From NCBI RefSeq assembly GCF_003334255.1, contig NZ_QOWU01000073.1: a DNA stretch of 18,664 nucleotides. One strand, given 5' to 3'. Both the position numbers and the translations under genes were made by a program. Positions 2,878 through 3,548 of this stretch are shown piece by piece. The notes under the pieces were generated by a model. The model was not told the origin of the DNA. It searched no databases and worked only from the letters and a program-made list of their open reading frames with translations. This stretch comes from Escherichia coli. Lineage in GTDB: Bacteria; Pseudomonadota; Gammaproteobacteria; Enterobacterales; Enterobacteriaceae. Position 1 is the first letter of the stretch. Each line of letters starts with the position of its first letter.

Positions 2878-3180
2878 GCGACCTTATTATCCATGCGCGG
2901 TATTGTCGCCGTATTCCTGCATTAACAGAGACCGCAGCCCGACAGGGAGACTCCTCTGCGAGAGTGTGCGGGGATAATCAAAAACGATACACACCGGGGT
3001 TTACCGCGTTAACGGAGCGCGGCGTTGTCCCCTCATGGTCGCTGGTCCGGTGCGATGGTGGAAGAAACCGGACGATGTGTTACCTCGCAAGCTCTGTTAT
3101 GTCATGTGTCTGATTTGTGATTTAAGTCGGATAATTGTCGTTGCCATTAAACAGAGGATTGATGACCGACAGGGTGGCAT

Positions 3181-3201
3181 TGTTAGAATAAGACTTATTC
3201 T
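3181..3201 (+). promoter_or_regulatory. Putative extended -10 promoter (TGtTAGAAT) overlapping a perfect 8-bp inverted repeat (AGAATAAG a CTTATTCT)
   Basis: TG at 3181-3182, hexamer TAGAAT at 3184-3189. Inverted repeat arms at 3185-3192 and 3194-3201, immediately upstream of the lipoprotein gene. No convincing -35. Confidence 0.3.
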
Positions 3202-3215
3202 TATCTGTGCCGGGA

Positions 3216-3548
3216 ATGAAAATGAAAAGAAATCTTCCGTTAATTATTTTGTTGTCTTCTCTGGTTATGGGCTGTACGCAACATAAAACAGATATGCCCC
3301 GACAGTTGGTTAAGGCATTACCACAATATCCGGCCTATGCAGCGGCAAATTATATAAAGGGACGGGTTGATGTGAAGTTTGATATTGGTGCTGATGGTAC
3401 TGTCACCCGAATTGAGTTTATCCGTTCAGAGCCGCACCATTTGTTTGATGAGCAGGTTGTAAAGGCGATGGCAAAATGGCGATTTGAGAAGGACAGGCCG
3501 TGTAAAGGCGTGAAGAAAACGTTTATCTTTAGTCCTTCTGCACCCTGA
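3216..3548 (+). CDS. Lipoprotein consisting of a TonB C-terminal-like domain (no TonB N-terminal TM or Pro-rich linker)
   Basis: Signal peptide MKMKRNLPLIILLSSLVMGC with lipobox-like VMGC and no Asp at +2. Mature part LPQYPAYAAANYIKGRVDVKFDIGADGTVTRIEFIRSEPHHLFDEQVVKAMAKWRFEKDRP aligns with the E. coli TonB C-terminal domain as recalled ([61 protein letters not shown]). Start could be GTG 3207, ATG 3216 or ATG 3222. Confidence 0.75.
   Translation: MKMKRNLPLIILLSSLVMGCTQHKTDMPRQLVKALPQYPAYAAANYIKGRVDVKFDIGADGTVTRIEFIRSEPHHLFDEQVVKAMAKWRFEKDRPCKGVKKTFIFSPSAP

Follow-up and report, generated by a model that had tools for sequence, protein, structure and literature searches.

A prophage lipoprotein built on a TonB C-terminal domain, a candidate TonB-box decoy of Escherichia coli

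Between the lysis genes and the terminase genes of a lambdoid prophage of Escherichia coli lies a small gene whose product consists of a lipoprotein signal, a short tether and the C-terminal domain of TonB, which raises the question of what a phage would gain from carrying this one part of an import motor. The gene was examined on a stretch of DNA of 18,664 nucleotides (contig NZ_QOWU01000073.1 of the NCBI RefSeq assembly GCF_003334255.1; the whole of this stretch is referred to here as the window), on which it occupies positions 3222..3548 of the plus strand and encodes a protein of 108 amino acids (RefSeq WP_000828068, labelled 'TonB family protein', of E. coli SCU-104). A first-pass annotation of the window, made from the letters alone, had described the product as a lipoprotein signal peptide fused directly to a TonB C-terminal-like domain and had proposed it as a decoy for TonB boxes serving in superinfection exclusion. 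The results presented here establish the architecture of the protein and lead to a reading of it as a natural dominant-negative TonB, or TonB-box decoy, to which we give about an even chance of being correct.

The TonB C-terminal domain: identification and predicted fold

A profile search with the 108-residue protein returned the Pfam family PF03544 (E=1.6e-14), and the TIGRFAM family TIGR01352 was matched at 54.5 bits against a cutoff of 27.1. Comparison with the Protein Data Bank (PDB) using phmmer identified the C-terminal domains (CTDs) of TonB from E. coli and Salmonella (E=4e-16 to 3e-15), with 39% identity to E. coli TonB over its residues 153-231, the equivalent of which is encoded by positions 3297..3533 of the plus strand. 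An AlphaFold2 model built on an alignment of 42 sequences had a predicted local distance difference test score (pLDDT) above 96 for residues 31-100, and with Foldseek it was superposed on TonB taken from the BtuB:TonB complex (2gsk_B) with a root-mean-square deviation (rmsd) of 1.0 Å over 79 columns and a TM score of 0.92, and on TonB taken from the FhuA:TonB complex (2grx_C) with an rmsd of 1.1 Å. The predicted fold, a three-stranded sheet with two helices, was found to be superposable on the solved TonB CTDs (PDB 1U07, 2GSK chain B, 2GRX chain C and 8RD6; rmsd 1.0-1.4 Å), an excellent agreement. The lack of such a structural match had been named in the first-pass annotation as a ground for refuting it, and the match was present. 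Residues of TonB that are kept in the prophage protein include P161-Q162-Y163-P164 (the PQYP motif), F180, G186, F202, W213 and F230; all of the core aromatics are retained.

The equivalog families for whole TonB proteins (NF008080-NF008084) were not reached, the scores being 49-74 bits against cutoffs of 265-448. Furthermore, the transmembrane anchor and the proline-rich linker of TonB are absent, only a cleavable lipoprotein signal and a tether of seven residues being found ahead of the domain. The protein belongs to the TonB_C domain family. Since it lacks two defining features, the equivalog-level score and the anchor with its linker, it is not a TonB energy transducer, and with neither a transmembrane helix nor a linker it has no link to ExbB/ExbD. 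Both the fused architecture and the missing helix and linker of the first-pass annotation were thereby borne out.

Lipoprotein signal and tether

The lipoprotein signal peptide was predicted at 3222..3275 of the plus strand as MKRNLPLIILLSSLVMG followed by the Cys to be lipid-modified (codon 3273-3275), with Thr at position +2. This sequence, with its lipobox LVMG ahead of the Cys, was found to fit the PROSITE PS51257-type pattern, possessing a positively charged n-region, a hydrophobic h-region and a lipobox Cys. The same pattern was fitted by every intact homologue checked except P0040 (lipobox LSAC), for which only the Pro at position -4 fails. Across the homologues checked, the residue after the Cys was Thr, Ser or Ala and never Asp. 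Under the Lol-avoidance rule of E. coli, a residue other than Asp at +2 predicts sorting to the outer membrane, and the TonB-domain lipoprotein is predicted from its sequence to be sorted there via Lol.

Between the lipid anchor and the domain lies the tether, TQHKTDM, at 3276..3296 of the plus strand. The distance from the Cys to the PxYP motif was found to be constant at 16-17 residues among the phage alleles and the four closest homologues, which are 41-49% identical.

The decoy reading and what weighs on it

In the mechanism proposed, the domain would be held a few residues from the inner leaflet of the outer membrane, uncoupled from the ExbB/ExbD motor, and would bind TonB-box segments by beta-strand addition without pulling on them. 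Its targets could be TonB-dependent transporters, among them FhuA, BtuB or CirA, or else the TonB boxes that group B colicins and microcins bring with them as they enter. We infer that a lysogen expressing the gene could in this way become partly tolerant to TonB-dependent phages (T1, phi80 and the many lambdoid gut phages that depend on FhuA) and to TonB-dependent bacteriocins.

When exported to the periplasm, fragments of TonB reportedly inhibit transport by FhuA and FecA as well as infection by phi80 and the action of colicin M. The prophage protein shares with such dominant-negative fragments of the laboratory an uncoupled C-terminal part of TonB in the periplasm; the fragments are engineered and soluble, whereas the prophage protein is natural, lipid-anchored and 39% identical to TonB. 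In an uncontrolled AlphaFold model of a single-chain fusion, consisting of the mature domain, a (G4S)6 linker and residues 1-20 of FhuA, the segment DTITVT, which is the FhuA TonB box, was predicted as a beta-strand with a pLDDT of 73-76, the linker having 39-47. At the position of Q160 of TonB the window protein has Leu, and it has been described that FhuA and colicin M mutated in the TonB box regain activity with TonB carrying Q160L (PMC11658791). A phage lipoprotein acting at a comparable place has also been described, as Llp of T5 is a lipoprotein of the inner leaflet of the outer membrane that binds the periplasmic face of FhuA, at a surface occluded by TonB (bioRxiv 10.64898/2026.03.26.714494).

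The identical fold evidence would serve a model in which the target is TonB itself, the anchored domain pairing at the outer membrane with either the host TonB CTD or the periplasmic part of ExbD and so uncoupling the Ton system, with an outcome equal to that of a decoy. TonB C-terminal fragments crystallise as dimers. Residues of ExbD have in addition been cross-linked to the TonB C-terminus (PMC11658791). However, the identity to the CTD of E. coli TonB is only 39%, and the uncontrolled fusion model favours a free TonB-box groove, so that poisoning of TonB by direct pairing is considered quite unlikely.

A number of points weigh against the decoy reading. Three TonB residues implicated in contacts with transporters are replaced in the prophage protein (Q160L, R166Y and R204E), the position equivalent to Q160 varies across the family, and the seven-residue tether may prevent the orientation seen in the crystal complexes of TonB with its transporters. 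The fusion model described above had neither a scrambled-peptide control nor a TonB positive control, and pairing of the TonB box with strand beta3 was unconfirmed in it. No published phenotype or experiment on the TonB-domain gene was found in full-text literature searches, papers on O157:H7 that mention CP-933N contained nothing on it, and none of the PADLOC defence models was matched. A block of TonB would cost the cell iron and vitamin B12 uptake, yet the gene is carried by 23-30% of complete E. coli genomes, and any effect would therefore have to be weak, regulated or selective. Moreover, O157:H7 strain EDL933 is sensitive to a TonB-dependent microcin (PMC8853679), an intact copy of the gene in EDL933 being unconfirmed; the cassette that carries the gene was absent from the one prophage region of EDL933 examined (at potC).

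Also to be counted here are lipoprotein-TonB_C homologues in non-phage settings of the chromosome, namely beside ahpCF and a glutathione S-transferase (GST) gene, near lacIZY in Klebsiella, and near acetyltransferase/Usp or PTS genes. Membership of the family thus extends beyond phages, and its basic role may not be defence. These settings, together with the lack of a PADLOC match, favour a non-defensive envelope or physiology factor, that is, a borrowed housekeeping lipoprotein acting as a tether to peptidoglycan or the outer membrane, or tuning TonB-dependent uptake or signalling; the TonB C-terminus is said to have an affinity for peptidoglycan. Such a role is nonetheless judged unlikely for the prophage gene, given that it recurs at the post-lysis moron site in several unrelated phage backbones and that parallel morons encoding lipoproteins with TolA domain III, described below, point to interference with import machinery. 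The chromosomal members could reveal the ancestral role of the family. One of them, on the chromosome of Klebsiella sp. R445 (locus L012, 6429-7336), is 46% identical and adjoins a gene for a lipoprotein of the Rick_17kDa_Anti family near lacIZY.

The moron cassette and its promoter-like elements

The gene was found to lie on a cassette of 595 bp (3075..3669, plus strand) comprising a promoter-like element and the gene. Phage vB_EcoS-569R3 (L003) is collinear with the window up to position 3074 and again from position 3670, so that exactly this segment is missing from it, with a 5-bp microhomology (AACCG) at the junction, and other relatives (L002) hold unrelated DNA at the site. The cassette has a GC content of 42%, as compared to 55% for the window. 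With sharp-edged presence and absence between collinear phages and a deviant base composition, the gene is an accessory gene of the prophage, or moron.

Upstream of the gene, a sigma-70-like promoter candidate was identified at 3162..3189 of the plus strand (ATGACC-16 nt-TAGAAT; 9/12 consensus matches and an upstream TG), which includes the extended -10 element TGTTAGAAT at 3181-3189 on the same strand. The sequence TGT(T/C)AGAATAAGAC is kept in the 72%-identical allele of phage 21 despite much difference in the flanking sequence; the -35 hexamer was not conserved in that allele, and the number of promoter-like sites in the whole 1.6-kb region (three found, 2.1 expected by chance) was no better than chance. 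Of the extended -10 promoter proposed at first, the presence and conservation of the element thus stood, while its -35 hexamer and the site count lent no support.

The perfect 8-bp inverted repeat that had been pointed out at the same place (AGAATAAG-A-CTTATTCT, 3185-3192/3194-3201) exists and overlaps the -10 element. Its right arm, however, falls within a 13-bp gap of the phage-21 allele, and a second perfect 8-bp inverted repeat is present in the same 800 bp. The repeat is probably incidental for these two reasons, and a role for it as an operator was rejected. Regulation by Fur was likewise rejected, since the match overlapping the -10 element (13/19, at 3187-3205), which ties for best in the window, is weak, lies in AT-rich DNA and falls in the phage-21 gap. 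A strong sigma-70-like promoter match, TTCACA-16-TATAAT (11/12), was noted on the minus strand at 3349-3376, antisense within the TonB-domain open reading frame (ORF). Its TATAAT is retained in phage 21 and overlaps conserved Asn-Tyr-Ile codons, so it may be a by-product of the coding sequence.

A scan for terminator-like sites found none between positions 2705 and 4100, a range that includes the region downstream of the gene, so that late transcription antiterminated by Q would extend through it. Coupled with a location that follows the lysis genes on the strand of the late genes, this favours a late lytic function for the phage itself, for example a shutdown of host TonB before lysis, rather than lysogenic conversion. 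The conserved extended -10 element suggests independent expression instead, the cassette is dispensable in close relatives, and phage 21 uses LamB, so that there would be no obvious benefit to its progeny; a late lytic function is accordingly seen as improbable.

Genomic context and the lysis genes

The window represents late genes of a lambdoid prophage of E. coli whose head genes are HK97-like, the order being endolysin, Rz with embedded Rz1, the TonB-domain gene, HNH endonuclease, small and large terminase, capsid, portal and tail. Its closest full-length match was found in E. coli VL7S7 (97.3% identity), and the 521 bp around the gene (3100-3620) are 100% identical to DNA of E. coli SCU-104. 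The location given by the first-pass annotation, after Rz/Rz1 where lambda has bor, was correct, with the terminase genes downstream, and phage 21 carries both bor and the TonB-domain gene there.

The ORF recognised at first is likewise real, although its start was set at the upstream ATG (3216..3548, plus strand, 110 amino acids). The ATG at 3222 is more likely to be the start because it is the one used by RefSeq, because a GGGAA Shine-Dalgarno sequence lies 5-6 nt upstream of it, and because the phage-21 allele has ATA in place of the ATG at 3216.

Upstream on the plus strand, the i-spanin Rz (2078-2656, also placed at about 2165-2656) was found to contain, out of frame, the embedded o-spanin Rz1 (2382-2567), a proline-rich lipoprotein with the lipobox LVVSAC. 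This is a classical Rz/Rz1 pair, and the lysis cassette is therefore already complete without the TonB-like gene. The TonB-domain protein nevertheless matches PHROG 1267, a family of the lysis category bearing the label 'Rz-like spanin', at E=5.7e-43, and its lipoprotein character and a gene position immediately after the lysis genes would also suit a lysis accessory. Against such a function stand the complete Rz/Rz1 upstream, the absence of the cassette from near-identical phages, the promoter-like element of its own, TonB_C as the sole domain, and the curated i-spanin and o-spanin of phage 21, which are separate genes. As a folded TonB_C domain on a dispensable cassette, with separate Rz/Rz1, the protein was rejected as a spanin, and a spanin-like role is regarded as very improbable indeed. 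Most likely the PHROG label is mistaken, having been derived from gene position and lipoprotein character, and it would propagate into annotations of phage genomes.

Elsewhere in the window, the ORF at 6864-8801 (plus strand), which bears the label 'phage major capsid protein', encodes 645 amino acids, an unusual length for a protein of this kind. The portal gene adjoining it is frameshifted in SCU-104 and EDL933.

Distribution, selection and family

Of 5426 complete genomes of E. coli, 417 were found to carry the allele of the window, in all cases on the chromosome and in up to four copies, O157:H7, O103 and O111 strains being among the carriers. A second allele was present in 1225 of the 5426, including UTI89. 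Classical phage 21 carries this second allele, adjoining bor between Rz/Rz1 and cos. The gene is labelled 'TonB C-terminal domain protein' in the GenBank record of phage 21, and the genome announcement of that phage makes no mention of it.

Between the window allele and that of phage 21, dN/dS was 0.12 at a dS of 1.46, a ratio that points to purifying selection on a working protein. The possibility of a pseudogene or 'partial tonB-like' remnant was rejected on this ratio and on the conserved lipobox and tether length.

A HMMER search of 1.8 billion representative proteins revealed a clade of lipoprotein-TonB_C proteins of 107-133 amino acids, scoring 87-100 bits, with the TonB-like fragments P0139 and P0148 (about 61 bits) falling outside it. 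Recent capture of a host tonB was rejected in view of this separate lipoprotein clade and of the 39% identity to the TonB CTD. Homologues that are 41-45% identical share the slot between lysis and terminase genes in phages that differ in the families of their terminase, portal and endolysin. Such loci include one with a DUF2514 spanin and Terminase_4 (L006/L007), one with a holin, a GH108 endolysin and Terminase_2/6 (L013), and that of Klebsiella phage ST13-OXA48phi12.4.

Two further features of the SCU-104 prophage were observed. It is located at ompW, some 3 kb from host tonB (L020, 8418-9137 and 12033-13163), which is probably a coincidence. Its tail end (L019, 12600-18618) encodes a protein with a YadA C-terminal domain and a 1341-residue autotransporter peptidase of the S6 family (SPATE-type), cargo of the kind associated with virulence.

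A parallel with TolA domain III

Outside the window, the prophage of SCU-104 was found to carry a gene labelled 'TolA' (L001, 5901-6329), the product of which is a lipoprotein of 142 amino acids consisting of a lipobox (LTTG followed by Cys) and TolA domain III (PDB 1S62, E=1.6e-25). This gene lies between the Q/tRNA genes and the lysis genes, the position that stx occupies in Stx phages. At the DNA level it shares 81% identity with the 3' end of tolA of the host, the full-length gene was present in 125 genomes, and from its sequence it looks like a recent capture. In phage mEp460_ev081, a TolA-III gene and a second, diverged lipoprotein-TolA-III gene were identified in tandem (L022, 5001-5429 and 5580-5975). 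The prophage of VL7S7, the closest to the window, has no TolA-III gene, and the TonB and TolA genes are therefore not obligatorily linked.

The TolA-III lipoprotein resembles the TonB-domain protein in that both are products of lambdoid morons with a lipobox and a C-terminal ligand-binding domain only. It differs in having TolA domain III, a tether of about 35 residues and a site between Q/tRNA and lysis genes, and it too is apparently uncharacterised. For both import motors, then, lipid-anchored copies of the ligand-binding end, predicted to lie at the outer membrane, recur in phages, and interference with import would account for this better than a role in structure or lysis. Tentatively, and with the balance somewhat against it, a broader class of decoys can be envisaged in which anchored TonB CTDs and TolA-III domains trap the TonB boxes or TolA-binding motifs of incoming colicins, microcins and phage proteins ahead of the true motors, which would lend lysogens a broad tolerance of bacteriocins and phages.

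Which phages and toxins a decoy would exclude

The first-pass annotation had spoken of superinfection exclusion, which is unlikely here if the term is taken strictly, as directed at the phage's own kind. Phage 21, a carrier, uses LamB, and comparison of the J tip protein of the SCU-104 prophage with a phage collection gave matches among which phi80, N15 and T1 were not found, the similarity being 96% to PhiR12-type phages and about 30-37% to J of the lambda type. Self-exclusion in the manner of Cor was rejected on these grounds. Any exclusion would therefore be aimed at other phages, at colicins or at microcins, and plausible targets are plentiful. Among faecal lambdoid phages FhuA is the predominant receptor (PMC11893012), and a TonB-dependent microcin has been found to raise the production of prophage-encoded Stx2a in O157:H7 (PMC8853679).

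Comparison with known systems and implications

Set beside TonB, with which it has the fold, the PQYP motif and the core aromatics in common, the prophage protein differs in being lipid-anchored, at the outer membrane according to prediction, without a transmembrane helix or linker, in the replacement of Q160, R166 and R204, and in belonging to a separate clade. Llp of T5 and Cor of phi80, N15, HK022 and mEp167 are likewise small phage lipoproteins, situated at the inner leaflet of the outer membrane and at the periplasmic face of FhuA. In outcome a decoy would resemble these two. They block the receptor of the phage that carries them, whereas the prophage protein is predicted to target the TonB box, or the Ton pathway in general, instead of a single receptor. 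No likeness to Llp or Cor was found, as the Pfam matches were to TonB families only and the sole significant PHROGs, 1267 and 34172, are not labelled as either. A structural search of BFVD gave no match at E<0.001, and Llp-like folds are reported to be common in that database (bioRxiv 10.64898/2026.03.26.714494); judged from the predicted structure, the fold is unrelated to those of Llp and Cor. Bor/Iss of lambda shares the niche between Rz and cos and is also an outer-membrane lipoprotein encoded by a moron; it bears no relation in sequence or fold, and bor lies on the opposite strand and confers serum resistance.

The annotation of the domain is already public, while the functional idea and the pairing of TonB with TolA would be new. 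If the decoy reading is true, the gene, for which 'TonB family protein' is the only annotation, would encode an inhibitor of the Ton pathway that occurs naturally in hosts and phages that include enterohaemorrhagic E. coli (EHEC), uropathogenic E. coli (UPEC) and phage 21, and it would provide a ready tool to uncouple TonB from its transporters. It would bear on the prediction of host range in phage therapy with T1-like, phi80-like and other TonB-dependent phages, on competition by colicins and microcins in the gut, and on the efficacy of siderophore-antibiotic conjugates that enter via TonB-dependent transporters. The parallel with TolA domain III suggests a principle by which phages copy the receptor-binding end of a host import motor and fix the copy to the wrong membrane. 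Should the broad decoy class be real, this would constitute a new form of defence by mimicry of import machinery, present in about a quarter of E. coli genomes.

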